Positions 2 to 48,306 of a DNA stretch of 64,000 bases are shown here, piece by piece. How positions within the stretch are numbered: the first letter of the stretch is position 1; each line of letters starts with the position of its first letter. The DNA is from Escherichia coli (GTDB lineage Bacteria > Pseudomonadota > Gammaproteobacteria > Enterobacterales > Enterobacteriaceae). The stretch lies in assembly GCF_044324785.1 (NCBI RefSeq), contig NZ_CP172127.1; one strand, 5' to 3'. A program made the translations under genes and the position numbers. The notes beneath the pieces are model-generated. The model ran no database searches, was not told the origin of the DNA, and saw only the letters and a list, made by a program, of their open reading frames with translations.

Positions 2-457
<456 letters not shown>

Positions 458-1824: not shown

Positions 1825-1950
1825 TTAGCTGGCAGCGCGGGAGATGGAGTTGCCGAGGTGTTTGATATCTTCGCCGAAACCGCGAGCGGTGTTACAGCCC
1901 GTAAGCAGCGTGCTGGCAAGCAAAACAAGAACGATAAGGCGTTTCATCAT
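1825..1950 (-). CDS. ecnA: entericidin A lipoprotein
   Basis: 41-aa product MMKRLIVLVLLASTLLTGCNTARGFGEDIKHLGNSISRAAS; below the ORF-track cutoff. Confidence 0.9.
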   Translation of the reverse strand: MMKRLIVLVLLASTLLTGCNTARGFGEDIKHLGNSISRAAS

Positions 1951-2001
1951 CTCTAACCTGAATAAGTGATGGTGCAGCCTGCAGGCCGCACCACAACCGC
2001 A

Positions 2002-2568
2002 TTACTTCACGCGAGAGACGTATTCACCAGAGCGGGTATCCACTTTGATGACTTCGCCGATTTGTACAAACAGCGGAACTTTAACCACAGCGCCAGTAGA
2101 CAGGGTAGCCGGTTTGCCGCCAGTACCTGCGGTATCACCTTTCAGGCCCGGATCGGTATCCACGATTTCCAGTTCAACGAAGTTCGGTGGAGTAACGGAG
2201 ATCGGCTGACCATTCCACAGAGTTACGATACACTCTGCCTGATCCAGCAACCATTTGGCGTTGTCGCCAATTGCTTTTGCATCAGCAGACAGCTGCTCGA
2301 AAGTTTCGTTGTTCATGAAGTGCCAGAACTCACCGTCGTTGTACAGGTAAGTCAGGTTCATATCGACAACATCAGCGCCTTCAGCGGAATCAGTAGATTT
2401 GAAGGTTTTTTCTACGCGAGTACCGGTCAGCAGACGACGCAGTTTAACGCGAGCAAATGCCTGGCCTTTACCCGGTTTTACGAATTCACTCGCTTCAACC
2501 GCGTAAGGTTCGCCGTCTAACATGATTTTAAGACCAGCACGAAAATCGTTGCTATAGTACGTTGCCAT
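2002..2568 (-). CDS. efp: elongation factor P
   Basis: 188-aa [25 protein letters not shown]...; K-12 synteny. Confidence 0.95.
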
Positions 2569-12597: not shown

Positions 12598-12936
12598 ATG
12601 CTTGATGAAAAAAGTTCGAATACCGCGTCTGTCGTGGTGCTATGTACGGCACCGGATGAAGCGACAGCCCAGGATTTAGCCGCCAAAGTGCTGGCGGAAA
12701 AACTGGCGGCCTGCGCGACCTTGATCCCCGGCGCTACCTCTCTCTATTACTGGGAAGGTAAGCTGGAGCAAGAATACGAAGTGCAGATGATTTTAAAAAC
12801 TACCGTATCTCACCAGCAGGCACTGCTGGAATGCCTGAAGTCTCATCATCCATACCAAACCCCGGAACTTCTGGTTTTACCTGTTACACACGGAGACACA
12901 GATTACCTCTCATGGCTCAACGCATCTTTACGCTGA
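12598..12936 (+). CDS. cutA: divalent-cation tolerance protein CutA
   Basis: 112-aa product [32 protein letters not shown]... Confidence 0.9.
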
Positions 12937-14609
12937 TCCTGCTACTTTGCAGCACTTCCGTTTTTGCCGGATTATTCGACGCGCCGGGACGTTCACAATT
13001 TGTCCCCGCGGATCAAGCCTTTGCTTTTGATTTTCAGCAAAACCAACATGACCTGAATCTGACCTGGCAGATCAAAGACGGTTACTACCTCTACCGTAAA
13101 CAGGTCCGCATTACGCCGGAACACGCGAAAATTGCCGACGTGCAGCTGCCGCAAGGCGTCTGGCATGAAGATGAGTTTTACGGCAAAAGCGAGATTTACC
13201 GCGATCGGCTGACGCTTCCCATAACCATCAACCAGGCGAGTGCGGGAGCGACGTTAACTGTCACCTACCAGGGCTGTGCTGATGCCGGTTTCTGTTATCC
13301 GCCAGAAACCAAAACCGTTCCGTTAAGCGAAGTGGTCGCCAACAACGCAGCGTCACAGCCTGTGTCTGTTCCGCAGCAAGAGCAGCCCTCCGCGCAATTG
13401 CCCTTTTCCGCGCTCTGGGCGTTGTTGATCGGTATTGGTATCGCCTTTACGCCATGCGTGCTGCCAATGTACCCACTGATTTCTGGCATCGTGCTGGGCG
13501 GTAAACAGCGGCTTTCCACTGCCAGAGCATTGTTGCTGACCTTTATTTATGTGCAGGGGATGGCGCTGACTTACACGGCACTGGGTCTGGTGGTTGCTGC
13601 CGCAGGGTTACAGTTCCAGGCGGCGCTACAGCACCCATACGTGCTCATTGGCCTCGCTATCGTCTTTACCTTGCTGGCGATGTCAATGTTTGGCTTGTTT
13701 ACTCTGCAACTCCCCTCTTCGCTGCAAACACGTCTCACGCTGATGAGCAATCGCCAACAGGGCGGCTCACCTGGCGGTGTGTTTGTTATGGGGGCGATTG
13801 CCGGACTGATCTGTTCACCATGCACCACCGCACCGCTTAGCGCGATTCTGCTGTATATCGCCCAAAGCGGGAACATGTGGCTGGGCGGCGGCACGCTTTA
13901 TCTCTATGCGTTGGGCATGGGCCTGCCGCTGATGCTAATAACCGTCTTTGGTAACCGCCTGCTGCCGAAAAGCGGCCCGTGGATGGAACAAGTCAAAACC
14001 GCGTTTGGTTTTGTGATCCTCGCATTGCCGGTCTTCCTGCTGGAGCGAGTGATTGGTGATATATGGGGATTACGCTTGTGGTCGGCGCTTGGTGTCGCAT
14101 TCTTTGGCTGGGCCTTTATCACCAGCCTACAGGCCAAACGCGACTGGATGCGCGTGGTGCAAATAATCCTGCTGGCAGCGGCATTGGTTAGCGTGCGCCC
14201 ACTTCAGGATTGGGCATTTGGTGCGACGCATACCGCGCAAACTCAGACGCATCTCAACTTTACACAAATCAAAACGGTAGATGAGTTAAATCAGGCGCTC
14301 GTTGAAGCCAAAGGCAAACCAGTGATGTTAGATCTCTATGCCGACTGGTGCGTCGCCTGTAAAGAGTTTGAGAAATACACCTTCAGCGACCCGCAGGTGC
14401 AAAAAGCGTTAGCAGACACGGTATTACTTCAGGCCAACGTCACTGCCAACGACGCACAAGATGTGGCGCTGTTAAAGCATCTTAATGTCCTTGGCCTACC
14501 GACAATTCTCTTTTTTGACGGACAAGGCCAGGAGCATCCACAAGCACGCGTCACGGGCTTTATGGATGCTGAAACCTTCAGCGCACATTTGCGCGATCGC
14601 CAACCGTGA
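12912..14609 (+). CDS. dsbD: thiol:disulfide interchange protein DsbD
   Basis: 565-aa product from [19 protein letters not shown]..., with central membrane domain and C-terminal thioredoxin-like CVAC motif; overlaps the cutA 3' end as in K-12. Confidence 0.92.
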
Positions 14610-14645
14610 ACGACACTTGCAGTGGGAAAGACGGAGGAAAATAGC

Positions 14646-15221
14646 GTGCAACGTGAAGATGTACTGGGAGAAGCCCTGAAATTATTAGAATTACAAGGGA
14701 TTGCCAACACCACGCTGGAGATGGTTGCTGAACGTGTGGATTATCCACTGGACGAGCTACGCCGCTTCTGGCCAGACAAAGAGGCAATCCTCTACGATGC
14801 GCTGCGTTATCTTAGCCAACAGATAGATGTCTGGCGTCGTCAGCTGATGCTGGACGAAACGCAAACCGCCGAACAAAAGCTGCTGGCACGTTATCAGGCG
14901 TTATCGGAGTGCGTTAAAAACAACCGCTATCCGGGCTGTCTGTTTATCGCTGCCTGTACGTTTTATCCCGATCCTGGCCACCCTATTCATCAACTGGCCG
15001 ATCAGCAAAAAAGCGCGGCCTACGATTTCACCCACGAACTGTTAACCACACTGGAAGTTGACGATCCGGCGATGGTAGCAAAGCAGATGGAACTGGTGCT
15101 GGAAGGCTGTTTAAGCCGAATGCTGGTGAATCGTAGCCAGGCGGATGTCGACACCGCACATCGGCTGGCAGAAGATATCCTGCGCTTCGCCCGCTGCCGC
15201 CAGGGTGGCGCACTGACCTGA
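14646..15221 (+). CDS. yjdC: TetR-family transcriptional regulator YjdC
   Basis: 191-aa product from a GTG start ([31 protein letters not shown]...), HTH N-terminus. Confidence 0.8.
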
Positions 15222-15327
15222 CAGAAACACAGAAAAGAAGCGATTTGCCGCAATCTTAAGCAGTTGAATCGCTTTTACTGAAATTAGGTTGACGAGATGT
15301 GCATATTACGGTTTAATGCGCCCCGTT

Positions 15328-15403
15328 GCCCGGATAGCTCAGTCGGTAGAGCAGGGGATTGAAAATCCCCGTGTCCTTGGTTCGATTCCGAGTCCGGGCA
15401 CCA
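15328..15403 (+). tRNA. pheU: tRNA-Phe (GAA anticodon)
   Basis: exact 76-nt match to the E. coli tRNA-Phe sequence GCCCGGATAGCTCAGTCGGTAGAGCAGGGGATTGAAAATCCCC...GGGCACCA; K-12 position next to yjdC. Confidence 0.97.
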
Positions 15404-15579
15404 CTTTCACTTCCAGATTCATCTCCCGAACTCCACGAAACTCAAGTATAATCACATCGTTACAAGCAATCTGAACATCCTGAACTCCACCGAACTCTAC
15501 TGAACTCTCTCTCAATCAAGCGTTCATTGGGGGCACCGGTGGGGGCTCATTGTGTTCAGTCAGTTTCAGGAGCCCCCAT

Positions 15580-16764
15580 ATGGCACTTACAGCCAGACAG
15601 GTCGAAACAGCCAGACCTAAAGAAAAAGACTATAAACTCTCTGACGAACGTGGTTTATATCTGCTGGTAAAAACCACGGGTGCCCGCTACTGGCGGCTTA
15701 AATACCGGATAGCAGGAAAAGAGAAAAAACTGGCCCTCGGCGTCTATCCCGACGTCTCCCTTGCTGAAGCCAGAATCAAACGCGACGATGCCCGAAAAAT
15801 TATCTCCGAAGGTGGCGACCCGGGCGAAAAGAAGCGAAAGGAAAAACTCACTCAGAAAATCTCTGCCACCAATACGTTCCATGCCCTTGCTACGGAATGG
15901 CATCAGCATAAATCTTTGTCATGGTCTGAAAGTTACGCCAGAAGCGTACTGGAGGCTCTGGATAAAGATATTTTCCCGTATCTGGGCAAACGAAGCGTTA
16001 CTGATATCCTCCCGCTGGAAATGCTGGAAATTCTGCGCCGCATAGAAAAACGTGGCTCGCTGGAAAAACTTCGTAAGGTGCGTCAATACTGTAATCAGAT
16101 TTTTCGTTATGCCATCGCCACCGGACGAGCCACTGTCAATCCGGCATCTGAACTGACCAGTACGCTGGCGGCGCCAAAAGCTGCACATTTCCCCCACCTG
16201 AGAGCAGATGAGCTCCCTGTTTTTCTCCGGAAGCTCGCTGAATATCATGGCAGTCCTGTTACCCGCATGGCGACAAATCTGCTGCTTCTGACAGGCCTCA
16301 GAACGATTGAACTACGGTCCGCTGAATGGTCAGAAATTGATTTTGATAATGCCCTGTGGACAATCCCTGAAAGCCGCATGAAAATGCGACGTAAACATGT
16401 CGTACCACTGTCACGACAGGCCACTGACATTCTGCTGCAGCTCAAAACTTTCTCCGGACAATACCGGCTGGTTTTCCCGGGACGTTGTGATATCAACAAG
16501 CCAATGAGCGAAGCCAGCATCAATATGGTGCTCAAACGTATCGGTTACGATGGCAGGGCAACCGGTCATGGTTTTCGTCACACCATGAGTACCATTCTGC
16601 ACGAACAGGGCTTTAATTCTGCCTGGATTGAAATGCAGTTAGCTCATGTGGATAAAAATTCCATCAGGGGTACCTATAATCATGCCCTGTATCTCGATGG
16701 TCGCCGTGAAATGATGCAATGGTACGCTGACTACATTGATTCACTTTCCATCCAGGAGAGTTAA
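15580..16764 (+). CDS. P4-type tyrosine integrase of a pheU-inserted genomic island
   Basis: about 394 aa, MALTARQVETARPKEKDYKLSDERGLYLLVKTTGARYWRLKYRIAGKEKKLALGVYP..., with C-terminal catalytic region (HGFRHT...Y); located 177 bp after the tRNA 3' end. Confidence 0.88.
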   Translation: MALTARQVETARPKEKDYKLSDERGLYLLVKTTGARYWRLKYRIAGKEKKLALGVYPDVSLAEARIKRDDARKIISEGGDPGEKKRKEKLTQKISATNTFHALATEWHQHKSLSWSESYARSVLEALDKDIFPYLGKRSVTDILPLEMLEILRRIEKRGSLEKLRKVRQYCNQIFRYAIATGRATVNPASELTSTLAAPKAAHFPHLRADELPVFLRKLAEYHGSPVTRMATNLLLLTGLRTIELRSAEWSEIDFDNALWTIPESRMKMRRKHVVPLSRQATDILLQLKTFSGQYRLVFPGRCDINKPMSEASINMVLKRIGYDGRATGHGFRHTMSTILHEQGFNSAWIEMQLAHVDKNSIRGTYNHALYLDGRREMMQWYADYIDSLSIQES

Positions 16765-16913: not shown

Positions 16914-17924
16914 ATGTCACTTAAGGCGATTGCCACTGCACTCGGAGTTTCTGTCACCACTGTCAGTCGGGCTCTTGGAGGCTATGCAGATGTGTCAGCT
17001 TCCACCCGTGCACGGGTGGAAGCTGAAGCTCGTCGACGCGGTTACCGTCCTAATACTCAGGCAAGAAGACTCAAAACCGGTAAAACCGATGCTGTCGGTC
17101 TGGTTTATCCTGGACGTGATGTGCCATTTAACAGTGGTGTTTTTATGGATATGGTCAGTTGCATCAGCCGGGAACTTGCTCACCATGATATTGACTTACT
17201 ACTGATAGCTGATGATGAGCATGCCGATTGCCACAGCTATATGCGGCTTGTTGAAAGTCGCAGGGTTGATGCTCTCATCATTGCACACACTCTGGATGAC
17301 GATCCCCGTATCACACACCTTCATAAAGCAGGTATTCCATTTCTGGCTCTTGGTCGGGTACCATCTGGTCTGCCCTGTGCGTGGTTTGACTTTGATAATC
17401 ATGCCGGGACTGGACAGGCAACCCAGAAACTGATTGCTTTGGGACATAAACGTATTGCATTGTTGAGTGAAGACACTTCACATAGCTATGTTGTTGCAAG
17501 ACGTCAGGGATGGCTTGATGCACTGAATGAGCATGAACTGGAAGATACATGGCTGCGGCTGGTTTCTCCCACACGGCGAGCAGGATATCAGGCCGTGATG
17601 GAGTTAATGTCACTACCGATACCACCAACAGCTATTATTACTGACAATGACCTGAGTGGAGATGGTGCTGCCATGGCACTGCAGTTGAGCGGTCGTCTTT
17701 CAGGAAAAGATGCGGTATCTCTGGTTGTATATGATGGTTTGCCACAGGACAGTATTATTGAGCTGGATGTGGCTGCAGTTATTCAGTCAACACGAAGCCT
17801 CGTTGGTCGCCAGATTTCCGAGATGATATATCAGATAATTACTGATTCATCATCAAAACCACTACAGGTTGTCTGGAACCCGGTATTTTATCCGGGAAAG
17901 ACGATTCATCCTCCTTGCTCCTGA
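16914..17924 (+). CDS. rafR: LacI/GalR-family repressor of the raffinose operon
   Basis: 336-aa ORF with N-terminal HTH (LKAIATALGVSVTTVSRAL) and sugar-binding core; followed by operator palindromes and rafA. Confidence 0.8.
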   Translation: MSLKAIATALGVSVTTVSRALGGYADVSASTRARVEAEARRRGYRPNTQARRLKTGKTDAVGLVYPGRDVPFNSGVFMDMVSCISRELAHHDIDLLLIADDEHADCHSYMRLVESRRVDALIIAHTLDDDPRITHLHKAGIPFLALGRVPSGLPCAWFDFDNHAGTGQATQKLIALGHKRIALLSEDTSHSYVVARRQGWLDALNEHELEDTWLRLVSPTRRAGYQAVMELMSLPIPPTAIITDNDLSGDGAAMALQLSGRLSGKDAVSLVVYDGLPQDSIIELDVAAVIQSTRSLVGRQISEMIYQIITDSSSKPLQVVWNPVFYPGKTIHPPCS

Positions 17925-17944
17925 TTTTTTTATCCAGCTCACAT

Positions 17945-17983
17945 ATCCGAAACGTTTTGGTTGATACCCGAAACGTTTCGGAT
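17945..17983. promoter_or_regulatory. paired palindromic operators (RafR-type) in the rafA promoter
   Basis: two near-identical palindromes CCGAAACGTTTTGG (17947-17960) and CCGAAACGTTTCGG (17968-17981) between rafR and rafA. Confidence 0.7.
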
Positions 17984-18019
17984 CAACAGTAAGGCATCCC
18001 TGAGAAAGGAGAATGTCTT

Positions 18020-20146
18020 ATGGTTTCAAAGTACTGCAGACTGAGCAGTCCTCGCTCTGATTTAATTATTAAAACCCGTCCACATGCAGAAATTATCTGG
18101 TGGGGCTCTGCACTGAAACATTTCTCACCGGATGACTGTGCCAGCCTGGAAAGACCGGTTGCGAATGGTCGTCTGGATATTGATACGCCACTAACACTGA
18201 TGGCTGAAAATGCCCTGGGACTTTTTAGCTCTCCGGGACTGGAAGGACACAGGAATGGGCTGGATGCATCTCCTGTTTTTTATACAGTTGACGTGGAACA
18301 TACCGAAAACACTCTGAGACTTACCAGTGAAGATTCGGTAGCCGGCCTGCGTCTGGTCAGCGAGCTGGTGATGACGCCATCAGGAATTCTGAAAGTTCGT
18401 CATGCACTGACCAACCTCAGAGAGGGGGACTGGCAGATAAATCGTTTCGCCATCACTTTACCTTTAGCGGAACGTGCGGAAGAAGTCATGGCTTTTCACG
18501 GACGCTGGACTCGTGAATTTCAGCCGCACAGGGTACGTCTCACTCATGATGCTTTTGTTCTGGAAAATCGCAGAGGGCGGACATCTCATGAGCATTTTCC
18601 GGCGCTGATTGTCGGCACGCCAGGCTTCTCGGAACAACAGGGAGAGGTGTGGGCTGTGCATCTGGGGTGGAGTGGAAATCACCGCATGAGATGTGAGGCA
18701 AAAACTGACGGCAGGCGTTACGTTCAGGCTGAGGCTCTGTGGATGCCGGGTGAGAAGGCTCTCAGGAAGAATGAAACCCTGTACACCCCGTGGCTATATG
18801 CCTGCCACTCTGCGGATGGCCTGAATGGAATGAGTCAGCAATACCATCGTTTTTTGCGTGATGAAATTATCCGTTTCCCTGAGCAAAAACCCCGCCCTGT
18901 ACATCTCAATACCTGGGAAGGTATTTATTTCAATCACAATCCTGATTACATCATGCAGATGGCTGAGCGTGCAGCAGCACTGGGCGTTGAACGTTTCATT
19001 ATTGATGATGGCTGGTTTAAAGGACGTAACGATGACCGCGCGGCTCTGGGCGACTGGTATACCGATGAACAGAAATACCCGAACGGGCTGATGCCGGTTA
19101 TTAAACATGTGAAATCTCTCGGTATGGAATTTGGCATATGGGTTGAGCCGGAAATGATTAACCCGGATTCTGACCTGTTTCGTCTTCATCCTGACTGGGT
19201 ATTGTCAATGCCTGGATATTCCCAGCCAACCGGAAGATATCAGTATGTTCTTAACCTGAATATTCCAGAGGCCTTTGCTTACATTTATGAACGTTTCTTA
19301 TGGTTACTGGGAGAACATCCGGTTGATTATGTGAAATGGGACATGAATCGTGAGCTTGTACAGGCAGGGCATGAAGGCCGTGCGGCAGCAGATGCACAGA
19401 CCCGTCAGTTCTATCGATTGCTTGATCTCCTCCGTGAACGTTTTCCACATGTTGAGTTTGAGTCCTGTGCTTCCGGTGGGGGGCGTATTGACTTCGAAGT
19501 CCTGAAACGCACACACCGGTTCTGGGCATCTGACAATAATGATGCCCTGGAGCGCTGCACCATACAACGTGGCATGAGTTACTTTTTCCCTCCTGAGGTG
19601 ATGGGGGCGCATATTGGCCATCGCCGCTGCCATGCAACTTTCCGGCAGCACAGCATCGCTTTTCGTGGGCTGACGGCATTGTTCGGCCATATGGGGCTGG
19701 AGCTGGATCCGGTGGCCGCAGATGCGAAGGAATCTGACGGTTATCGCCGGTATGCCTTGCTCTATAAAGAATGGCGACAACTGATTCATACAGGAGTTCT
19801 CTGGCGTGTGGATATGCCAGATCCTTCGATACAGGTTCAGGGAGTCGTCAGCCCTGATCAGTCTCAGGCACTTTTTATGATCAGCCAGCTTGCAATGCCG
19901 GATTACACCTTACCAGGCATACTTCGTTTTCCCGGTCTGGCGGCGGAAGTGCGTTACCGGCTTCGGGTTATTGATCACCCGGACCTCCAGGTGGTTGGTG
20001 AAGGCGGTCATACCATGCGCAAATTACCTGTCTGGATGAATCAGAGCCTTGAGGCCAGTGGTGAATGGCTGGCACAGGGAGGGATTCAGCTCCCCGTACT
20101 GGATCCGGAGAGTGCGATTTTGATAGCACTTGAAAGAGCTGTGTGA
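18020..20146 (+). CDS. rafA: alpha-galactosidase (GH36), raffinose operon
   Basis: 708-aa ORF; gene order with a LacY-like permease and a GH32 invertase downstream. Confidence 0.85.
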   Translation: MVSKYCRLSSPRSDLIIKTRPHAEIIWWGSALKHFSPDDCASLERPVANGRLDIDTPLTLMAENALGLFSSPGLEGHRNGLDASPVFYTVDVEHTENTLRLTSEDSVAGLRLVSELVMTPSGILKVRHALTNLREGDWQINRFAITLPLAERAEEVMAFHGRWTREFQPHRVRLTHDAFVLENRRGRTSHEHFPALIVGTPGFSEQQGEVWAVHLGWSGNHRMRCEAKTDGRRYVQAEALWMPGEKALRKNETLYTPWLYACHSADGLNGMSQQYHRFLRDEIIRFPEQKPRPVHLNTWEGIYFNHNPDYIMQMAERAAALGVERFIIDDGWFKGRNDDRAALGDWYTDEQKYPNGLMPVIKHVKSLGMEFGIWVEPEMINPDSDLFRLHPDWVLSMPGYSQPTGRYQYVLNLNIPEAFAYIYERFLWLLGEHPVDYVKWDMNRELVQAGHEGRAAADAQTRQFYRLLDLLRERFPHVEFESCASGGGRIDFEVLKRTHRFWASDNNDALERCTIQRGMSYFFPPEVMGAHIGHRRCHATFRQHSIAFRGLTALFGHMGLELDPVAADAKESDGYRRYALLYKEWRQLIHTGVLWRVDMPDPSIQVQGVVSPDQSQALFMISQLAMPDYTLPGILRFPGLAAEVRYRLRVIDHPDLQVVGEGGHTMRKLPVWMNQSLEASGEWLAQGGIQLPVLDPESAILIALERAV

Positions 20147-20208
20147 AGAGAGGTACGGAGCCTCAGCTCCGTCCTGTTTCTCAATATTATCCCGTGAGGG
20201 TAAGAATA

Positions 20209-21486
20209 ATGAATTCTGCAAGTACGCATAAAAATCCCGATTTCTGGATTTTCGGTCTGTTCTTCTTTCTCTACTTTTTCATCATGGCAACCTGTTTTCC
20301 GTTTTTGCCTGTATGGCTGTCCGATGTGGTCGGACTGAGTAAAACGGATACAGGTATAGTCTTTTCATGTCTTTCTCTGTTTGCCATCAGTTTCCAGCCA
20401 TTGCTTGGGGTCATATCAGATCGCCTGGGACTGAAAAAAAACCTGATCTGGAGTATCAGCCTGTTACTTGTATTTTTCGCCCCCTTTTTTTTATATGTAT
20501 TTGCGCCCCTGCTGCGCTTCAATATCTGGGCAGGCGCACTGACTGGCGGTGTCTTTATTGGTTTTGTGTTTTCTGCAGGTGCCGGAGCTATTGAAGCTTA
20601 TATAGAGCGGGTCAGTCGCAGTCGTGGATTTGAATACGGTAAAGCGAGGATGTTCGGGTGTCTGGGCTGGGCGTTATGTGCGGCTATGGCTGGAATGCTT
20701 TTTAATGTCGATCCTTCTCTGGTTTTCTGGATGGGGTCAGTAAGCGCATTATTGTTGCTTCTTCTGTTGTTTCTGGCGCGCCCCAGTACCAGCCAGACGG
20801 CAATGGTTATGAATACACTGGGTGCCAATTCTTCCCTGATTTCGACCAGAATGGTCTTCAGCCTGTTTCGCATGCGTCAGATGTGGATGTTTGTTCTCTA
20901 CACGATTGGTGTGGCCTGTGTCTATGATGTATTTGATCAGCAGTTTGCCACATTTTTTCGTTCATTCTTTGACACTCCTCAGGCAGGAATAAAAGCATTC
21001 GGATTTGCTACCACTGCGGGGGAGATTTGTAATGCCATTATCATGTTCTGTACACCATGGATAATTCATCGCATTGGTGCCAAAAATACCCTGCTTGTTG
21101 CGGGGGGAATTATGACCATCCGCATTACCGGTTCTGCTTTTGCCACCACCGCGACAGAAGTGGTGATTCTGAAAATGCTTCACGCTCTTGAAGTTCCATT
21201 TTTGCTGGTTGGGGCGTTCAAATATATTACGGCAGTGTTTGACACCCGACTGTCAGCGACCGTTTATTTAATAGGTTTTCAGTTTTCCAAACAACTTGCT
21301 GCAATACTTCTCTCTACCTTTGCCGGCCACCTGTATGATCGTATGGGATTCCAGAATACGTATTTTGTGCTCGGGATGATTGCTCTGACTGTTACCGTGA
21401 TATCAGTTTTCACGCTGAGTTCTTCCCGCGGGAGCGTACACCCTTCTGTAGAAAAAGCCCCTGCAGCGCATTCGGAGATTAACTGA
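20209..21486 (+). CDS. rafB: raffinose permease (LacY-family MFS symporter)
   Basis: 425-aa product from MNSASTHKNPDFWIFGLFFFLYFFIMATCFPF...; RBS GAGGG upstream; overlaps the rafD start. Confidence 0.85.
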   Translation: MNSASTHKNPDFWIFGLFFFLYFFIMATCFPFLPVWLSDVVGLSKTDTGIVFSCLSLFAISFQPLLGVISDRLGLKKNLIWSISLLLVFFAPFFLYVFAPLLRFNIWAGALTGGVFIGFVFSAGAGAIEAYIERVSRSRGFEYGKARMFGCLGWALCAAMAGMLFNVDPSLVFWMGSVSALLLLLLLFLARPSTSQTAMVMNTLGANSSLISTRMVFSLFRMRQMWMFVLYTIGVACVYDVFDQQFATFFRSFFDTPQAGIKAFGFATTAGEICNAIIMFCTPWIIHRIGAKNTLLVAGGIMTIRITGSAFATTATEVVILKMLHALEVPFLLVGAFKYITAVFDTRLSATVYLIGFQFSKQLAAILLSTFAGHLYDRMGFQNTYFVLGMIALTVTVISVFTLSSSRGSVHPSVEKAPAAHSEIN

Positions 21487-22916
21487 TGAAACAGCGTCTT
21501 GCTTTGGCACAGTCTGCCCTTGAAAAACTTTGCGCACGTCGTGGTAATGCCTGGTACCCGATTTTTCATCTGGCTCCACCTGCCGGCTGGATGAATGATC
21601 CAAATGGCCTTATTTACTTCAATGGGCGTTACCATGCGTTCTTCCAGCATCATCCTGCAAGCGCATATCAGGGGCCAATGCACTGGGGGCATGCCACCAG
21701 TACCGACATGTTGCACTGGCAACACGAACCTGTCGCGCTGGCACCCGGAGATAAATATGATCGTGATGGCTGTTTTTCAGGGAGTGCCGTGGATGATGAT
21801 GGCGTGCTATCACTTATTTATACTGGTCATATTTGTCTCGATGATCGTGGTAATGACAGCATTATCCGTGAAGTACAGTGTCTGGCTACAAGTCATGATG
21901 GTATTCACTTTGAGAAGCAGGGCTGTGTGCTGACACCTCCGGAAGGTATAATGCATTTCCGTGATCCCAAAGTCTGGCACGAAGACGGCTCCTGGTGGAT
22001 GGTCATTGGTGCCCGGGACGCTTCTGACAATGGGCAAGTTCTGTTGTATCGCGGGACATCTTTGCGGGACTGGCATCTGGAGCATGTTCTTGCTCATTCC
22101 GCAGCCGGAAAAAGTTATATGTGGGAATGCCCCGATTTCTTCAGGTGTGGTAATTTTCACTGGCTGATGTTCTCACCACAGGGGATGCCCCCTTCCGGTT
22201 ATCGGTTCCGTAACCTTTTTCAGAGCGGTGTGTTGGCAGGGAGCTGGAAGCCTGGTTCTGTCTTTGCGCTGAAAGGGGGATTTGAAGAGCTGGATTATGG
22301 TCATGACTTTTATGCTCCACAGTCCATGCTGGCTGAGGACGGCAGGCGTATCATTATGGCATGGATGAATATGTGGGATTCACCCGTGCCCACCCGCAGT
22401 GAAGCCTGGGCAGGATGTCTGACGCTGCCCAGAGAGGTTTTTGAGCGCGATGGCCGGCTGTGCCAGCGACCTGTGCGTGAAGTCGAATCTCTGCGCAAAA
22501 AATGCCAGCCATTATCCCCTGTAAGGTTACAGGGTTTGCAATTACTGACCGAAAATGTACAGGCCGCAGAATTATTGGTGACGTGGCATACGGTTGACAG
22601 TCATGCGGAGCACTATGGCGTCCGCCTTGGAGACGGTCTGCGACTTTATGTGGATAATCAGGCCGGGCGACTGGTACTGTGGCGCTATTACCCTGAGGAA
22701 GGGTTGGATGGTTACCGCAGTGTTGAACTTCCTGATACAGAATATCTGACTCTTCGTATTTTCTTGGATCGTTCATCTGTTGAAGTGTTTGTTAACGATG
22801 GTGAGGCAACCTTATCAAGTCGTATTTATCCGCAAGCGGACTCGAGACAATTATCGTTATATGCCGCTCATGGCGATGCGATATTAACTGATGGCACTTT
22901 ATGGATGCTGACCTGA
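21486..22916 (+). CDS. rafD: raffinose invertase / sucrose-6-phosphate hydrolase-like (GH32)
   Basis: 476-aa ORF with GH32 motifs (WMNDPNGL, FRDPKV, WECPD). Confidence 0.85.
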   Translation: MKQRLALAQSALEKLCARRGNAWYPIFHLAPPAGWMNDPNGLIYFNGRYHAFFQHHPASAYQGPMHWGHATSTDMLHWQHEPVALAPGDKYDRDGCFSGSAVDDDGVLSLIYTGHICLDDRGNDSIIREVQCLATSHDGIHFEKQGCVLTPPEGIMHFRDPKVWHEDGSWWMVIGARDASDNGQVLLYRGTSLRDWHLEHVLAHSAAGKSYMWECPDFFRCGNFHWLMFSPQGMPPSGYRFRNLFQSGVLAGSWKPGSVFALKGGFEELDYGHDFYAPQSMLAEDGRRIIMAWMNMWDSPVPTRSEAWAGCLTLPREVFERDGRLCQRPVREVESLRKKCQPLSPVRLQGLQLLTENVQAAELLVTWHTVDSHAEHYGVRLGDGLRLYVDNQAGRLVLWRYYPEEGLDGYRSVELPDTEYLTLRIFLDRSSVEVFVNDGEATLSSRIYPQADSRQLSLYAAHGDAILTDGTLWMLT

Positions 22917-23110
22917 GACATATCGATATCAGTATTTTTTCTGACATTATCTGTCATTACTTTGCCAGTACACATTAATTATCTTTGCTGTGTGCTTTTG
23001 GTAATGTGTTGCGATTATATATACCAGTCTGGTGAAGAATATGAATGGTATTTTGTGTTGATACAGAGAATATAAGAGTACCCACATTTGTTTTTATTTA
23101 AGGGGGTAAA

Positions 23111-24505
23111 ATGAATAAGTTACTTTTGGGTTTATCTCTTTTTTTATTACTGGAATACAATGCGTGTGCAGCAAAAACAGGGGGGCTAACGCTTGAACAA
23201 AGAATGGCATTGCTGGAAGAACGCCTGGAAGCTGCAGAAAAAAGGGCGGAAAAAGCAGAAAGAATGTTAAAGAGTTTTGATATAGAACAACATTCTGAAA
23301 TACGTCAAATTAGTTCAGAGCAGAATAAAAAAGATGCTAACAGCTATGCAGTAGTTGAGTCAACAAAAGAAAAAACATCTTCTCCAGGTTTTCTGCTCTC
23401 TGGTTACAATGATTTGAAGTTTTATGGTGATGTGGAGTTTAATATAGATGCTGCCAGTAAACCCGGTCAGTTAGTAATGATAAGTTCCGGGGCGAACAGT
23501 GAGTCAGTGAATGAACGGTGGGACCTTAATGGCCGTATTCTATTAGGTTTTGACGGTACCCGTAAGCTTGATAATGGTTATTTCGCTGGATTTTCAGCAC
23601 AACCACTGGCGGATATGCACGGTTCAGTGAATATTGATGATGCATTATTCTTTTTTGGAAAAGATGACGAGTGGAAAGTGAAAGTCGGTCGTTTTGAAGC
23701 TTACGATATGTTCCCTCTAAATCAGGATACTTTCATTGAGTATTCCGGTAATACAGCTAATGATATTTATGCTGATGGCCGTGGTTATATCTATATGATG
23801 AAAGAGGGACGCGGTCGTTCTGACGCTGGTGGTAATTTCCTCATCAGTAAACAACTCGATAACTGGTATTTTGAGTTAAACACGTTACTTGAAGACGGAA
23901 CATCTTTATATAATAACGGTAATTATCATGGACGATATATGGAGCAGCAGAAAAATGTCGCTTATCTGCGCCCGGTAATTGCCTGGTCGCCAACGGAAGA
24001 ATTCACAGTCTCCGCAGCGATGGAAGCGAACGTGGTAAAAAATGCTTATGGCTATACCGATAATAAGGGGAATTTTGTCGATCAGTCCAATCGTTCCGGT
24101 TATGGTATTAGCATGACATGGAACGGTCTGAAAACAGATCCGGAAAATGGCATCGTGGTTACTCTTAATACCGCCTATTTGGATGCCAGTAATGAGAAAG
24201 ATTTCACTGCCAGTATTAATGCTCTGTGGAAACGTTTCGAACTGGGTTATATCTACGCACATAATAAGATTGATGAATTTAGTGGTGTCGTGTGTAATAA
24301 TGGTTGCTGGATTGATGGTGAAGGAATATACAACATTCACACCATTCATGCATCTTATCAGTTTGCTAATGTGATGGATATGGAGAACTTTAATATTTAC
24401 CTCGGGGCTTATTACTCAATTCTGGATAGTAACTGTAGATATAGTAATTGTGACATTACCGATGATCGTTACGGTGCCCGATTACGTTTCAAATACTTTT
24501 TTTGA
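23111..24505 (+). CDS. rafY: raffinose glycoporin (outer membrane)
   Basis: 464-aa ORF with signal peptide and aromatic-rich C-terminus ending in F, typical of outer-membrane beta-barrels; position after rafD. Confidence 0.7.
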   Translation: MNKLLLGLSLFLLLEYNACAAKTGGLTLEQRMALLEERLEAAEKRAEKAERMLKSFDIEQHSEIRQISSEQNKKDANSYAVVESTKEKTSSPGFLLSGYNDLKFYGDVEFNIDAASKPGQLVMISSGANSESVNERWDLNGRILLGFDGTRKLDNGYFAGFSAQPLADMHGSVNIDDALFFFGKDDEWKVKVGRFEAYDMFPLNQDTFIEYSGNTANDIYADGRGYIYMMKEGRGRSDAGGNFLISKQLDNWYFELNTLLEDGTSLYNNGNYHGRYMEQQKNVAYLRPVIAWSPTEEFTVSAAMEANVVKNAYGYTDNKGNFVDQSNRSGYGISMTWNGLKTDPENGIVVTLNTAYLDASNEKDFTASINALWKRFELGYIYAHNKIDEFSGVVCNNGCWIDGEGIYNIHTIHASYQFANVMDMENFNIYLGAYYSILDSNCRYSNCDITDDRYGARLRFKYFF

Positions 24506-28902: not shown

Positions 28903-30882
28903 ATGAACTTACAAGACAAAGAACAAAGCGCCAAACTCTCCAGTGCTATTTGGCGTATGGCAGATGATTTATGGGGTGATTTCAAACACACCGATTTTGC
29001 GCGGATTATCCTGCCATTTTTGCTACTGCGTCGTATTGAATGCGTGTTAGAACCCACCCGTGAGGAAGTTCGTAAGTTCTATCTGGCCGAAAAACAATCC
29101 GGCATAGACCTTGGTTTAGTGTTGCCAGAAATTGCGGGATTCGCCTTTTACAACACCAGTGAATATAGCCTAGAAACCTTAGGCGCGTCAGACACCGGCG
29201 ACAACCTAGAACACTACATCAGCCAGTTCAGCAAAAACGTTCGTACCATCTTTGATGAGTTTAAATTTGGTCAAACCATAGAAGATCTGGAAAAAGCCAA
29301 GTTGCTGTATCGCATGGTAAACCATTTTGCCAACCTCGACTTGCATCCTGATGTAGTGTCTGACCGCGTATTATCAGATGCTTATGAAGAGCTGATTCTA
29401 AAGTTCGCCAGTTCGGTTAATGAAAAGGCCGGGGAATTTATGACCCCGCGTGATGCCGTGCGTCTTGCCACCAAACTGGTGCTGGCGGCGGATGAAGATA
29501 TCTTTAGTGAAAAGGGTGTGATCCGCACCATCTATGACCCAACCTGTGGCACGGGCGGTTTCCTTTCCGATGCCATTAGCCAAATTGAAGAAATGGGCAG
29601 CAGCGCTAAAGTCGTGCCTTTTGGTCAAGAGCTCGACCCCGCGACCCATGCCATGGCGCTGACCAATATGATGATCCGCGGTTTTGATGCCAATAACATC
29701 AAGCAAGGCAACACCTTATCAGACGATCAGTTACGTGCCGACAAGTTTCACTACGGCCTTGCCAACCCGCCATTTGGCATTAAGTGGGAAAAAGCCAAGA
29801 AAGAAGTAGAACGTGAGCACAAACAGCTCAAATACGCCGGACGCTTTGGGCCAGGCCTGCCGAGTATTTCTGATGGTTCAATGCTGTTTTTACTGCACTT
29901 GGTATCAAAAATGGAAACGCCGGAAAATGGTGGTGGCCGAGTGGGTATAGTCCTTTCTGGCTCGCCACTGTTTAATGGCGATGCAGGCTCAGGCCCATCA
30001 GAAATCCGCCGTTGGCTGCTAGAACAAGACTTAGTCGAAGCGATTGTTGCCCTGCCAACCGATATGTTCTTCAACACCGGCATTGGCACCTACATCTGGA
30101 TTTTGACTAACCATAAAGAGCCAAGACGCAAGAATCAGGTGCAACTGATTAACTTGGCAGATATTTGGACTCCCATGCGTAAATCGCAAGGCGATAAGCG
30201 CAAGTACCTGAGTGATGAACAGATTGACGATATTGTCCGTGCGTACGATGGCTTTGAAGCCAGTGACAACTGTAAGATCTTCCAGACTACTGATTTTGCC
30301 TACCGTAAAGTCACCATTCAGCGTCCACTGCGTGCCAAACTAGATATTACCGCTGCGGGCATTGCTGCATTTGTGCAGCAAGATACGTTTAAAAAACTCA
30401 AACCAGAGCAACAAGCGGCATGGGTACAATACCTCACCGATAACCTTGGCCTTCAGCCTTATGAATGGGCACGTTTGGCGGTTAAGAAGAATAACAATAA
30501 GGGTGACTTTGGTAAGTGCTCAAAAGCACTGGCTACGGCCTTAACTGCGCACTTTGTAAAAATTGATCCGCAATTTGAGCCTGCACTGGATGAAAAAGGC
30601 CAAGTGATCGCCGACCCTAAACTCAAAGACACCGAAAGCATTCCTTTTGACCGCGACGTTGAAGATTACTTCGCACAAGAGGTGCTGCCACATGTACCGG
30701 ATGCCTTTATTGATCACTCAGTGCGTGATGAAAAAGACGGCGAAGTGGGCATTGTCGGTTATGAAATTAACTTTAACCGCTATTTCTACCAATACGTGCC
30801 ACCACGCGAGTTGAGTGTGATTGATCGTGAGCTAAAAGCATGTGAAGCGCGCATTCAGGCTCTGCTGAATGAGGTGGCGTAA
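28903..30882 (+). CDS. hsdM: type I restriction-modification system, DNA methyltransferase subunit
   Basis: 659-aa ORF with AdoMet motif DPTCGTGGFL and catalytic NPPFG; TAATG overlap with hsdS. Confidence 0.9.
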   Translation: MNLQDKEQSAKLSSAIWRMADDLWGDFKHTDFARIILPFLLLRRIECVLEPTREEVRKFYLAEKQSGIDLGLVLPEIAGFAFYNTSEYSLETLGASDTGDNLEHYISQFSKNVRTIFDEFKFGQTIEDLEKAKLLYRMVNHFANLDLHPDVVSDRVLSDAYEELILKFASSVNEKAGEFMTPRDAVRLATKLVLAADEDIFSEKGVIRTIYDPTCGTGGFLSDAISQIEEMGSSAKVVPFGQELDPATHAMALTNMMIRGFDANNIKQGNTLSDDQLRADKFHYGLANPPFGIKWEKAKKEVEREHKQLKYAGRFGPGLPSISDGSMLFLLHLVSKMETPENGGGRVGIVLSGSPLFNGDAGSGPSEIRRWLLEQDLVEAIVALPTDMFFNTGIGTYIWILTNHKEPRRKNQVQLINLADIWTPMRKSQGDKRKYLSDEQIDDIVRAYDGFEASDNCKIFQTTDFAYRKVTIQRPLRAKLDITAAGIAAFVQQDTFKKLKPEQQAAWVQYLTDNLGLQPYEWARLAVKKNNNKGDFGKCSKALATALTAHFVKIDPQFEPALDEKGQVIADPKLKDTESIPFDRDVEDYFAQEVLPHVPDAFIDHSVRDEKDGEVGIVGYEINFNRYFYQYVPPRELSVIDRELKACEARIQALLNEVA

Positions 30883-32168
30883 TGAATGCTGGCAACATAG
30901 TAGATGCTTTCGTATCTGACTCGAAATGGAACTCAGTACCAGCTAAACGTTTATTTACGAGTAGCAAAGAAATCAATCAAGGAATGAAAGAATCTAATCG
31001 TCTTGCACTAACAATGAAAGGTGTCATAAACCGCTCGTTAGACGATTTACAAGGACTTCAATCTTCTGATTACTCTGTTTATCAGATTTTTGAAAAAGAT
31101 GACTTAGTTTTTAAGCTCATAGATCTTGAAAATATAAAGACTAGCCGAGTGGGGATTGTGCATGAACGAGGAATAATGAGCCCTGCATACATCCGTGTTT
31201 CAGCGAGTTCAAATAGCATCTACCCAAGGTTCTATTACTGGTACTTTTTTGCTCTATACCTAACCAATATTTATAACAAACTGGGTGGAGGAGTTCGTCA
31301 GAACCTAACAGCTGGTGATCTTTTAGAAATACCTGTTCCACTGATTGATATTTCATTACAGAAGCAGGTTAGCACATTCCTTGATCGCGAAACCCAGCGC
31401 ATCGACAGTCTGATCGAGGAAAAGCAGACCTTTATTAAGCTGCTCAAAGAAAAACGCCAAGCACTGATCAGCCATGTGGTCACAAAGGGGCTCTATCCCA
31501 ATGTGGAGATGCAGGACTCTGGCATCGAGTGGATTGGGCAAGTGCCGAAGCATTGGGAAGTCAAAAAGATAAAGCATATTTGCTCCAACTTTATGTATGG
31601 AACCTCTCAAGACTGTAACCAGTCTGATGTTGGCTATCCTGTTCTCAGGATACCAAACATCAAGAGTACCAATGTTGATTTTGAAGATCTCAAATATGCA
31701 AATATCAGTGATGTTGATGCTTTAACTTATCTTTTATCAAGAGGCGACATTTTAGTCATCAGAACTAACGGTAACCCTAATCTGGTCGGCCAAAGCGCGC
31801 TTTTTGATTCAAATGGGCAGTATTTATTTGCGTCGTACCTAATAAAGTTAACACCAAAGCAAGGAGTGGATACTAGCTTCTTAGTGGAAGCGATGAACTC
31901 ACTATCTGTTCGTCAAGCATTAACATTTCAGTCAAGAACATCGGTAGGTAACTACAACCTGAGCATTCCTTCACTAGCTAATACAAGTATTGCTATCCCA
32001 CCAATTGATGAGCAAAAGACAATAACGAATTACTTGAGTGCAGCAACGATAAACATTGATTTACTGATTCAAGAGACTGATAAATCGATTGATCTTCTAA
32101 AAGAACACCGCACATCGCTGATCAACGCGGCTGTCACAGGAAAAATAGACGTCAGGGAGGCGGTGTAA
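30882..32168 (+). CDS. hsdS: type I restriction-modification system, specificity subunit
   Basis: 428-aa ORF with two-TRD architecture and conserved central and C-terminal repeats (SLIEEKQTFIKLLKEKRQALISHVVTKG / LLKEHRTSLINAAVTGKIDV). Confidence 0.88.
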   Translation: MNAGNIVDAFVSDSKWNSVPAKRLFTSSKEINQGMKESNRLALTMKGVINRSLDDLQGLQSSDYSVYQIFEKDDLVFKLIDLENIKTSRVGIVHERGIMSPAYIRVSASSNSIYPRFYYWYFFALYLTNIYNKLGGGVRQNLTAGDLLEIPVPLIDISLQKQVSTFLDRETQRIDSLIEEKQTFIKLLKEKRQALISHVVTKGLYPNVEMQDSGIEWIGQVPKHWEVKKIKHICSNFMYGTSQDCNQSDVGYPVLRIPNIKSTNVDFEDLKYANISDVDALTYLLSRGDILVIRTNGNPNLVGQSALFDSNGQYLFASYLIKLTPKQGVDTSFLVEAMNSLSVRQALTFQSRTSVGNYNLSIPSLANTSIAIPPIDEQKTITNYLSAATINIDLLIQETDKSIDLLKEHRTSLINAAVTGKIDVREAV

Positions 32169-35100
32169 TGGCTGCACATCATGAAGTGCATTTTGAACAA
32201 TATATTACCGAGCAGTTGGTGAACAATGGCTGGAAAGAAGGCCATTCCTGCCACTATGACCAGCAACGCGCCCTTTACCCGCAAGATGTCATGGATTGGG
32301 TAAAGGCCACCCAGCCAGATGCCTGGCACAAACTGAATAAACTGCATGGTGTGAATGCCGAGCAGGTGCTGTTGGAGCGTTTGGAAAAAGCCCTCTCTTC
32401 CCACAAAGCTGGCAGTAAAACAGGTGGCACCATTAATGTGCTGCGTAAAGGCTTTACCATTGCAGGTTGCGGCACGATTGCCATGGGCCAACGCAAACCC
32501 GAAGATGCGCGCAATGAAGAGCGTATAGCCCGTTATGAGCACAACATTTTGCGCGTGGTGCGCCAACTGAAATATTGCCCGACTCGCGAGTGGGAAATTG
32601 ACTTGGTGTTCTTTATCAACGGTCTACCCGTTGCCACCGCCGAGCTAAAAACCGATTTTACCCAGTCGCTAGAATCGGCGATTGCGCAGTACAAAGAGGA
32701 TCGTCTGCCCGTTGACCCAAAAACCAAGCGTAAAGAGCCGCTGTTAACCTTTAAACGCGGTGCAGTGGTACATTTTGCCATGTCTGATACAGAAATCGCC
32801 ATGGCGACCAAACTGGCGGGAGAAAATACCTATTTTCTGCCCTTCAATAAAGGCCATGATGGTTCTACCTCTGATTTGCCCGTACACATCAACTTGCCGG
32901 GTGAAGATGGAGAGTATCCGGTCAGCTATTTTTGGCAAGAAATTGCCCAAAAAGATAATTGGCTACGCATTTTCTACAGCTTTGTGTATGTCGAAACCAA
33001 AGAGGTTGCCGATAGCAATGGCAAGGTTGAGCGTAAGGAAACACAGATTTTTCCGCGTTATCATCAGTTAGCCGCAGTCAACAAGATGATTGATGATGCC
33101 CGCCAGAACGGCGCAGGCATGCAGTATCTTTGTGAGCACAGCGCCGGTTCGGGAAAAACCTCTACCATAGCCTGGACGGCCCATGATTTGATTCGTTTAC
33201 GCAGCACCGATGGTAAAGCGGTCTTTAAATCAGTGATCATTGTGACCGACCGCACCGTGCTGGATTCGCAGTTGCAAGATGCGGTGCAACAGCTGGATCA
33301 TCAATATGGGGTGATTAAGGTGATTGATCGCGAAAAGAGCAGCGAGTCGAAATCAAAACAGCTGACTGAAGCGCTATTGACTGGCACGCCGATCATTGTA
33401 GTGACGATTCAAACCTTCCCATATGCGTTAGAAGCGATTCTGACCAATCAATCTTTGGCACAAAGTAACTTTGCGGTGATCATCGATGAAGCACACACCT
33501 CGCAAACAGGCTCTACAGCCAAAGGGTTACGCGCAGCGCTTACTCTAAACCTTAGCCCTCAAGAGTTGGAGCAAATGAGCATTGAGGACATTCTTACTAA
33601 GGTGCAAGAAGCGCGCGCCATGCCCAAGAACGTTTCGCACTTTGCTTTTACGGCAACACCCAAGCACAGCACCAAGATGTTGTTTGGCCGCCCGAAAGAC
33701 CCTAACCAACCAGTGTCAGATGACAATCTTCCTGAATCGTTCCACCTCTACACCCAACGTCAGGCCATTGATGAGGGTTTTATTCTTGATGTGCTGGAGA
33801 ATTACACCCACTACGATACAGCCTACAAAATTGGTGAGAACAATCTGGATGAGAAGCGCGTAGACAGCAAACAAGCTCGCCGCGCGTTGGCGCGCTGGAT
33901 GTCACTGCACCCAACCACGGTCAGCCAAAAAGTCGAATTTATTATTAAGCACTTCAAGGCCAATATCGCTCACCTACTGGAAGGTGAAGCCAAAGCCATG
34001 GTGGTCACATCGGGCAGGCCACAGGCGGTGAAATACAAGCTTGCTTTTGATAAATACATTAAAAAGCATGGTATTGAAGGTATCCAAGCCTTGGTTGCCT
34101 TCTCGGGCAAAGTCCCCGGCAAAGATTTGGGTGATGAAGACAGCCAAGACCCGCTAGAAATTGATTTCGATAAAGAGTACACCGAGTACAACTTAAACCC
34201 AGACACGCACGGGGCTGACCTGCGCCATGAGTTTGAGAAAACCGAATATCGCGTCATGTTAGTCGCCAACAAGTTCCAAACGGGCTTTAATCAACCAAAA
34301 CTGGTTGCCATGTATTTGGATAAGAAAATATCCGATGTAGAAGCGGTGCAAACGCTGTCTCGCCTAAACCGCACCTATCCAGGCAAAGACACAACCTTCG
34401 TGATTGATTTTGTTAACGATCCACAAACCATTCTCAATGCGTTCAAAAAGTACGACAAAGGCGCGCAGCTTAATGAAGTGCAAGATGTGAACGTCATCTA
34501 TGACATCAAAGATATTTTGGATGAACAGAACATATACAACCATCAAGATTTAGAGTTGTTTAAGCAAGCGCGTGGTAAATCGATTCTCGGCCAATCACCT
34601 GACAAAAAGTCACACGCGCACAAGAAACTGCTAGCTGCCACACAACGCCCTACCGATGTGTTCAACGTTAAGCTCAAAGAGCTGGTTGATGCTGCAAACC
34701 ATTGGGATCAGCAATACAACAAAGCGCACCTTGCGGGTGATGAAAAAGCGGCGAACTACGCAGAATCTCAGCGCAGTGATTTCACCAAGCAGCGCGAAGC
34801 ACTAATGCGTTTTAAGTCAGATTTAGCTCGATTTGTGAAGCACTATAGCTATATGGCGCAATTGATTGAGTTTGGTGATCCTGAACTGGAAAACTTTGCC
34901 GCGTTTGCTCATTTGCTATCACGTCGATTGAAAGGGGTAACACCAGAAAACATCGATCTCAGTGCACTGGTACTAGAAAAATTCAAAATCAAATACGACA
35001 AAGAGCCGCTTCCAGAAGCGTTTAATCAGGTACTTGAACCTATCCGCCCCAACTATAACGACCCTGCGGATCGTGAACAGGCATTTCTTGCCGATATCAT

Positions 35101-46499: not shown

Positions 46500-46529
46500 C
46501 CACGCGGCGTTTCATTATTTGAAAAAGAA

Positions 46530-48300: not shown

Positions 48301-48306
48301 ACGGTA

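Follow-up and report, generated by a model that had tools for sequence, protein, structure and literature searches.

Results

Organization of the junction between pheU and the integrase gene

The 64-kb stretch of Escherichia coli DNA analysed here (the window) carries dsbD, dicD/yjdC and a tRNA-Phe gene in the order of the K-12 pheU neighbourhood. An integrase gene (int, 15580-16764, + strand) lies directly downstream of the tRNA-Phe gene (15328-15403, + strand) in the same orientation. The features of the locus are listed below.

12831-14609: dsbD, upstream of pheU
14622-15221: dicD/yjdC, between dsbD and pheU
15328-15403, + strand: tRNA-Phe (GAA) gene pheU, intact (ARAGORN)
15381-15403, + strand: attachment core or left direct repeat, 23 bp, TTCGATTCCGAGTCCGGGCACCA, single copy in the window
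15404-15579: pheU-int spacer, 176 bp
15407-15446, + strand: block A, stack of four phased 10-bp units TCACTTCCAG / ATTCATCTCC / CGAACTCCAC / GAAACTCAAG, proposed RDF sites
15447-15462, strand unassigned: conserved box TATAATCAC...TTA between blocks A and B, possible IHF (H') site
15470-15519, + strand: block B, five phased 10-bp units TCTGAACATC / CTGAACTCCA / CCGAACTCTA / CTGAACTCTC / TCTCAATCAA, proposed RDF sites
15528-15551, + strand: P'1 and P'2, tandem 12-bp repeats TGGGGGCACCGG and TGGGGGCTCATT, same layout as the annotated arm repeats of P4
15554-15558, + strand: conserved GTTCA box, invariant columns G174-A178 of alignment A1 (12 loci from different genera, three tRNA targets)
15568-15572, + strand: Shine-Dalgarno sequence (SD) AGGAG, 7 nt before the ATG, by reading of the sequence
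15570-15578, - strand: P'3, inverted arm copy, reads GAGCCCCCA on the + strand, 9/9 complementary inverted repeat
15580-16764, + strand: P4-family tyrosine integrase, intact, 394 aa (Pfam)

The K-12 sequence departs from the window straight after CACCA. The ARAGORN prediction of a complete tRNA, together with the K-12 gene order upstream, bears out an earlier sequence-only reading of this DNA, which had placed an island junction at an intact pheU. The ATG of int lies at 15580, in agreement with the RefSeq annotation at identical loci, and the spacer is therefore 176 bp long, not 177 bp as given in that reading.

The Pfam domains of Int are Arm-DNA-bind_3 (PF13356, aa 3-88), Phage_int_M (PF22022) and Phage_integrase (PF00589), all matched at near full length with E < 1e-25. 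The phage integrases nearest to it belong to the IntS group (46% identity). Across 373 complete E. coli genomes, spacer and integrase share 99.8% identity, and a similar spacer is found in 531 of 5426 genomes.

A scan of positions 15250-15700 gave no match to a sigma-70 promoter and none to a terminator. The pheU terminator of K-12 is not present at the island-bearing pheU of the window; since the island displaces it, read-through from the tRNA promoter into int is possible. The int promoter can be placed solely by analogy with P4 and KplE1, which would put the -35 element at offset 96-101. The hexamers at the analogous position (CTGAAC or CTCAAT, then CACCGG) are poor.

Phased GAACTC units form two blocks in the spacer

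Exact copies of GAACTC were located on the + strand of the spacer at 15428, 15482, 15492 and 15502. These are 4 of the 25 copies in the window, counting both strands. Two further copies are degenerate but stay in the 10-bp phase (GAAACTC, 15437; TGAACATC, 15472). The Poisson probability of finding at least four GAACTC in an 80-bp span anywhere in the window is ~4e-6 to 2e-5. The repeated motifs to which the sequence-only reading had drawn attention are real and non-random, with a Poisson estimate of ~1e-5 for such a cluster anywhere in the window.

The units are head-to-tail direct repeats spaced by one helical turn (10 bp), and their conserved core here is xCTCYA, one per turn. Block A extends over +4..43 and block B over +67..116 from the tRNA end. 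The last unit of block B occupies the position of the int -35 hexamer in P4 and KplE1.

Between the blocks, TATAATC (15447-15453) is nearly invariant in alignment A1, and WATCAA is seen at the same offset in P4 and KplE1. By analogy this box may be an IHF (H') site, with a weak match to the consensus. The IHF consensus WATCAANNNNTTR gave partial matches only, at 15450-15462 and 15514-15526, and the TTR half of the match is not kept in relatives. An IHF site has been mentioned for the int promoter region of P4 (PMC7286903).

Arm-type repeats precede the start of int

A second repeat word, TGGGGGC[A/T]C, occurs twice in direct orientation, and one inverted copy is present at the int start. The TGGGGGCACCGG/TGGGGGCTCATT tandem is the sole one of its kind in the window. 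These arm-type repeats had gone unnoticed in the sequence-only reading. P'3 fills the gap between SD and ATG and can pair with P'2 in the mRNA, so that a hairpin covering the SD can form (-28.6 kcal/mol, z = -1.78). The inverted arm copy is positioned exactly on the SD-ATG spacer in nearly all members of the family.

Comparison with the attachment regions of KplE1 and P4

In the attL of KplE1 (CPS-53), located between argW and intS, five sites for TorI (RDF), I1-I5, were mapped in two blocks by mutagenesis, and four IntS arm-type sites, P'1-P'4, adjoin the int promoter (Panis et al., PLoS Genet 2010, PMC2951348). When placed on the K-12 sequence, the TorI blocks fall at +6..33 (I1;2) and +69..96 (I3;4;5) from the argW end, with the words GTTCG/GTCCG/GATCG at +8, +28, +71, +81 and +91. 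The int -35 hexamer TTGACA follows at +96..101. The arm sites run up to the ATG, two of them direct (GGGTAAAA, GGATAAAA) and two inverted (TTTTACCC twice).

The spacer in the window resembles KplE1 in the tRNA 3' end, in the two blocks of one-turn repeats at equal offsets, in the -35 region and in the direct and inverted arm sites that reach to the ATG. The positions of the units coincide with the mapped TorI sites of KplE1 attL, and block A is proposed, by this analogy, to be equivalent to sites I1-I2 and block B to I3-I5. These TorI-equivalent positions favour another proposal of the sequence-only reading, that the motifs are protein-binding sites of the attachment region, which they very probably are.

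The two elements differ in the target tRNA (argW in KplE1, pheU in the window) and in the length of the spacer (161 bp vs 176 bp). They also differ in the unit word (GTYCG vs CTCYA, within GAACTCYAC), in the arm word (GGxTAAAA vs TGGGGGCxC) and in the number of inverted arm copies (two vs one). For KplE1 the RDF gene, torI, is known, whereas none is found within the window.

The GenBank annotation of P4 contains a 12-bp 'attP arm sequence repeat', with a tandem pair on each arm and one further copy, inverted, across the int start. The repeats on the int side are ATTGGGGGCATA and ATTGGGGGCATC. Words of the form xTCC(G) are present between the core and the arm repeats at +9/19/29/38 and +72/82/92/102. 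The likeness to the window thus extends to the tandem 12-bp GGGGGC-type repeats, found on each P4 arm, to the inverted copy at the int start and to the unit offsets 9/19/29 and 72/82/92/102. Between P4 (ATTGGGGGCATA) and the window (TGGGGGCACCGG) the arm word hardly differs, whereas the unit word is xTCC(G) in P4 and of the GAACTC type in the window. P4 further differs in its integration at leuX and in its Int of 440 aa (394 aa at pheU in the window), and it is an 11.6-kb phage satellite, while the window element is a mosaic island of >48 kb. Vis, the RDF of P4, belongs to the AlpA family; TorI is without a Pfam match.

The arm repeats of P4 were reportedly the subject of Pierson and Kahn in 1987. 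In Cali 2004, Vis is reported to bind two boxes between int and the core of P4. Box I and Box II would, by their position, correspond to the phased units. Words of the GTCCG type also occur near the vis and sid starts in P4, where the Vis-regulated late promoters are presumably situated. Piazzolla 2006 is said to cover the autoregulation of P4 int as well as Vis, its RNA binding and post-transcriptional regulation of Int. Binding of Vis to P4 attP was demonstrated by EMSA and footprint, and Vis has been reported as an RNA-binding, post-transcriptional regulator of Int (both cited in PMC2603039). Direct repeats spaced by one helical turn are the general form of RDF sites (PMC7498355). The architecture of the spacer is that of P4 attP and KplE1 attL, i.e. 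of a known kind, with no new mechanism.

The GI-pheV/GI-pheU islands of E. coli, which have intP4 alleles, end in imperfect attR variants of 19-23 bp, e.g. TTTCATTCCGA[G/T]TCCGGGCACCA, and many of them are without attR (PLoS Genet 2024, PMC11537424). At a selC island, GGGGGT repeats near both ends have been noted descriptively (PMC6174562). The insertion logic of these islands is that of the window island. In the parts consulted, the two papers (PMC11537424, PMC6174562) catalogue repeats and integrase alleles, with no division of the P' arm into arm sites and units for an RDF. No published dissection of this pheU/pheV junction was found. The cargo of the pheU/pheV island type includes raffinose, resistance and virulence determinants.

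Conservation of units and arm sites across the integrase family

A scan of GTDB genomes with the integrase yielded 80 loci with 43-81% protein identity. A tRNA or tmRNA is located upstream of int in the same orientation in 62 of them, and these together with the window gave a comparison set of 63 spacers. The targets include tRNAs for Phe, Asn, Arg-TCT, Arg-CCT, Thr, Gly, Ser, SeC, Leu and Ala, and also tmRNA. Among related loci the spacer length is mostly 160-177 bp.

Repeated words were observed in the 63 spacers at offsets of ~+8-9/18-19/28-29 and +71-72/81-82/91-92/101-102 from the tRNA end. The word itself depends on the lineage (TCAAC, GTCTC, TCCAT, TTACC or CGAT; AACTC in the window). 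In the 53 non-redundant spacers, lag-10 identity is 0.47 in block A and 0.40 in block B vs a background of ~0.25, and the cross-correlation between the blocks has maxima at lags 53, 63 and 73. The match between blocks A and B is 0.471 within a locus vs 0.399 between loci, and the within-locus value was reached in 0 of 5000 permutations. In alignment A1, the TC of each unit, the AATCA that ends block B and both GGGGGC words are invariant, as are the GTTCA box and the CCCCC preceding the ATG.

For the arm sites, the rule applied was two direct 8-mers 11-13 bp apart with an inverted copy downstream. This arrangement was found in 45 of the 63 spacers vs 3 of 1260 shuffled controls. The arm words differ by lineage (GGGGGCxx, GGGGGTA, TGTATAG, GCGGGCAT, ACGGTAT, GATGGTA), with all copies changing together.

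The far end of the island and the RDF gene

The pheU 3' 23-mer has no second copy in the window, whether up to 3 mismatches, an edit distance of up to 5 or shorter 3' sub-patterns were allowed. A far direct repeat would thus lie outside the window, and the expectation of one in the sequence-only reading is reasonable. An imperfect 23-bp copy, TTTCATTCCGAGTCCGGGCACCA, with 2 mismatches, ends the island in the genomes 14EC017 and VTB97420v, which encode an identical Int protein (WP_001218742.1). In 14EC017 the junction is at pheU, and TTTCATTCCGAGTCCGGGCACCA is located 69.3 kb downstream; the next bases are AATTCATA, matching the flank of pheU in K-12. The island of VTB97420v is colinear with the window up to 46451, and TTTCATTCCGAGTCCGGGCACCA is found 112.3 kb away, beside yghD. 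Only a 48-nt 3' fragment of tRNA-Phe precedes int in VTB97420v, and the arrangement there is therefore a tandem island array at pheV. A pheU/pheV chromosomal inversion in VTB97420v, considered for the island end beside yghD, was ruled out by the same fragment.

In tblastn searches with TorI, P4 Vis and an island AlpA-like protein, nothing below E = 0.09 was detected in the window, which holds 48.6 kb of the island. Genes of the AlpA family (PF05930) are present in the complete islands of 14EC017 and VTB97420v, and hence the RDF gene may lie beyond the window. Island proteins of this family include WP_000958154.1 and WP_000958153.1. The cognate RDF of the window island we infer from relatives only.

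Arm words and phased units follow different parts of the system

The P arm of 14EC017 and VTB97420v contains TGGGGGCCTCAT and TGGTGGCCTCAA ~69-92 bp before attR, and no GAACTC/CTCYAC units were found on it. From these far ends, the GGGGGC word is present on both arms, as expected of arm-type sites. The phased units are confined to a single arm, an arrangement shared with KplE1 and P4.

Units and arms vary independently of one another across the loci: GGGGGC, GGGGGT and GTATAG arms are all found next to ACTC units, and both GGGGGT and GTATAG arms next to TCTC units. A natural chimera is provided by two Proteus elements at tRNA-Ser, L044 and L056. The tRNA and the first ~110 nt of the spacer, comprising blocks A and B, are 80-100% identical between them. 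The arm repeats and the first ~330 nt of int (aa 1 to ~110) are only ~50% identical; over the remainder of Int, protein identity is 97-98%. Together with the N-terminal domain (49% identity), GGGGTAC gives way to TGTATAG as the arm word, while both elements keep GTCTC as the unit. This couples the arm word with the N-domain of Int and shows the phased units to be something other than arm-type sites.

Discussion

A P' arm with proposed separate sites for integrase and RDF

The sequence from 15404 to 15579 is almost certainly a canonical P' arm of attL, belonging to an island with a P4-family integrase that is inserted at the pheU 3' end. The order of elements along the arm, common to this integrase family, is the core (tRNA 3' end), block A, the TATAATC box (possibly for IHF), block B, two tandem 12-bp arm sites, the RBS, the inverted arm site and the int ATG. 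The catalytic and central domains of Int would be engaged on the core, and its N-domain on P'1, P'2 and P'3 here as well as on two P-arm sites at the other island end. The GAACTC units are probably the binding sites of an RDF (excisionase) of the AlpA/Vis/TorI type, to judge from their phasing and from the KplE1 and P4 attachment regions. Such an RDF would bind the one-turn units of blocks A and B cooperatively, and its binding would bend attL and favour assembly of the excisive intasome.

The RDF, together with Int on the adjacent arm sites, may also repress the int promoter. Shutdown of int by RDF with Int has been shown for KplE1 (PMC2951348), and int shutdown has likewise been reported for P4 and PAI I536. 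Since no consensus sigma-70 promoter is detectable in the spacer, repression of int in the window element is proposed by analogy only. For this element, then, we infer the identity of the protein on the units as well as bending and repression.

Alternative readings of the repeats

The phased units could instead be bound by something other than an RDF, i.e. the central or catalytic part of Int or IHF/Fis, or could be mere intrinsic curvature. The unit register is held from KplE1 (TorI) to P4 (Vis) to beta-proteobacterial loci; because elements with RDFs of no detectable sequence similarity share it, the binding partner could be a host factor common to them or a region of Int outside the N-terminal domain. 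The units also co-segregate with the central and catalytic domains of Int in L044/L056, and tblastn with TorI, Vis and AlpA-like queries found no RDF gene in the window. On the other hand, mutagenesis of KplE1 showed that TorI acts through these exact positions (PMC2951348). Each lineage has its own unit word, and blocks A and B vary in concert, which is no requirement of a host factor, and head-to-tail one-turn repeats are the signature of RDF sites (PMC7498355). Binding by a non-RDF factor is thus considered unlikely.

A role of the GAACTC units as arm-type sites bound by the Int N-terminal domain is less likely still, although their repetition and their location in the arm between int and the core would suit it, and Int does have an Arm-DNA-bind_3 domain. 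It is TGGGGGC, not GAACTC, that stands where P4 has its annotated arm repeats and KplE1 its mapped IntS P' sites. Next to attR in 14EC017 and VTB97420v, the P arm lacks GAACTC units but has TGGGGGC-type repeats, the N-domain and the arm word are swapped in L044/L056 while the units stay constant, and unit word and arm word are independent across loci. The sequence-only reading had offered arm-type integrase sites and excisionase sites as alternatives. The excisionase half is favoured by the TorI offsets and the one-turn repeats, whereas the absence of the units from the P arm of relatives and their unchanged state in L044/L056 argue against the arm-type half.

A further possibility is that the spacer acts mainly as RNA, as an int leader reached possibly by read-through from pheU, in which the TGGGGGCTC/GAGCCCCCA hairpin masks the RBS and GAACTC serves as a leader element. 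The hairpin is 9/9 complementary with a predicted -28.6 kcal/mol, the K-12 pheU terminator is absent here, and RNA binding with post-transcriptional control of Int has been reported for P4 Vis (cited in PMC2603039). The z-score of the fold is, however, just -1.78, and the arm word is also carried by the P arm at the other island end, where no such RNA exists. The covariation of the hairpin is fully accounted for by all copies being sites of one protein, and nothing ties the GAACTC units themselves to RNA structure. This reading appears very improbable. As the main explanation of the inverted repeat, the RNA hairpin was set aside as unneeded, given z = -1.78 and the same word on the other arm.

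Finally, a functionless slippage-type tandem or a chance cluster is scarcely credible: the units are short and exact tandem copies number only 3, but a GAACTC cluster has a window-wide chance of ~1e-5, the TC core of the units is invariant over 12 aligned loci of different genera and three tRNA targets, and the periodicity is present in 53 non-redundant loci, conservation data by which this reading is effectively refuted.

Implications

The arm repeats and the N-domain of Int might together form an exchangeable specificity cassette, and P'3 might be both an Int DNA site and one arm of a translation-masking hairpin; this combined proposal is speculative and rather doubtful. The cassette idea was suggested by the Proteus L044/L056 chimera. 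If the dual role of P'3 is true, int would be autoregulated at two levels, possibly with transcripts that read through from the tRNA promoter as the target. Tidy extras are the register, fixed throughout the family, and the swap of N-domain and arm sites as a cassette.

The analysis maps, base by base, the attachment arm of a pheU/pheV island type carried by ~10% of complete E. coli genomes. The map points to the bases through which the island could be locked in place or mobilised. It also provides an annotation rule for the attL of P4-family integrases on any tRNA: a core, two blocks of one-turn units, and two direct and one inverted arm words before the ATG.

Conserved and repeated elements at the integrase start

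Short elements on either side of the integrase (int) start codon were located in the window as follows.

15554-15558: GTTCA box, between the arm-type site P'2 and the SD
15589-15598 and 15607-15616: exact 10-bp direct repeat ACAGCCAGAC, copies 18 bp apart

The GTTCA box is invariant in all 12 aligned loci, which span several genera and three different tRNA targets. Both copies of ACAGCCAGAC lie inside int, within 40 nt of the start of its coding region. In the record of phage P4, one arm-type repeat is also annotated inside int.

Variation of the arm region among related loci

Two Proteus loci at tRNA-Ser, L044 (Proteus mirabilis) and L056 (Proteus cibi), were compared. The arm repeats and the N-terminal arm-binding domain of Int are only ~50% identical between them, whereas the flanking attL blocks and the remainder of Int are 80-100% identical. 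The divergent segment is delimited as follows.

L044/L056, spacer offset ~+110 to int codon ~110: swapped segment

This pattern of identity is that of a natural cassette swap.

At the tRNA-SeC loci (L022-L028, L034, L038 and L080) the spacers are 292-299 nt long. The usual module, consisting of the phased units, two GGGGGT repeats and an inverted copy ending in ...ACCCCCATAATG, is contained within the first ~170 nt. A second GGGGT/GGGGGT pair is seen ~130 nt beyond this module, ahead of the annotated start. In these selC-type spacers the pair points to duplication of the arm module or, alternatively, to an int start that is extended or was called wrongly. A further locus, L031, carries two tRNA-SeC genes in tandem.

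Occupied and decayed tRNA-Phe sites

Two comparison loci lie at tRNA-Phe targets.

L089 (strain VTB97420v), 2226-2273, minus strand: 3' 48 nt of tRNA-Phe with no whole tRNA gene, preceding the same integrase and spacer
L087 (K-12, NC_000913.3), ~1860-2010, minus strand: decayed P'-arm-like stretch downstream of pheU

In VTB97420v, a different element lies upstream of the 48-nt fragment. The arrangement looks like two islands accreted in tandem at pheV, the other element having left behind a longer duplication. In K-12, the pheU terminator is followed by the decayed P'-arm-like sequence (TTCTACCGAACTCAACCAGATTCTCC ... TTGCGGGCAT), the yjdQ pseudogene, a remnant of a P4-like integrase, and then cadC. 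The 'empty' pheU site of K-12 is not a virgin one.

Island cargo and the Mu-like prophage

The rest of the window holds the following features.

16914-24505: chromosomal raffinose-type operon, directly 3' of the integrase; island cargo
~28903-35404: type I restriction-modification system, after the operon
44919-46499, minus strand: ORF at the island/prophage boundary
46451-64000: Mu-like transposable prophage, carrying genes for the tail and baseplate as well as a Gin-like invertase with its invertible tail-fibre segment

The operon encodes a LacI-family regulator, an alpha-galactosidase, an MFS permease, a GH32 invertase and a carbohydrate porin. A PhoX-family island gene is cut short by the prophage end at ~46451. 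Mu-type head morphogenesis genes were found in relatives, and the same prophage resides within yjjI in strain AR_0081. This second location is consistent with movement of the Mu-like prophage by transposition.
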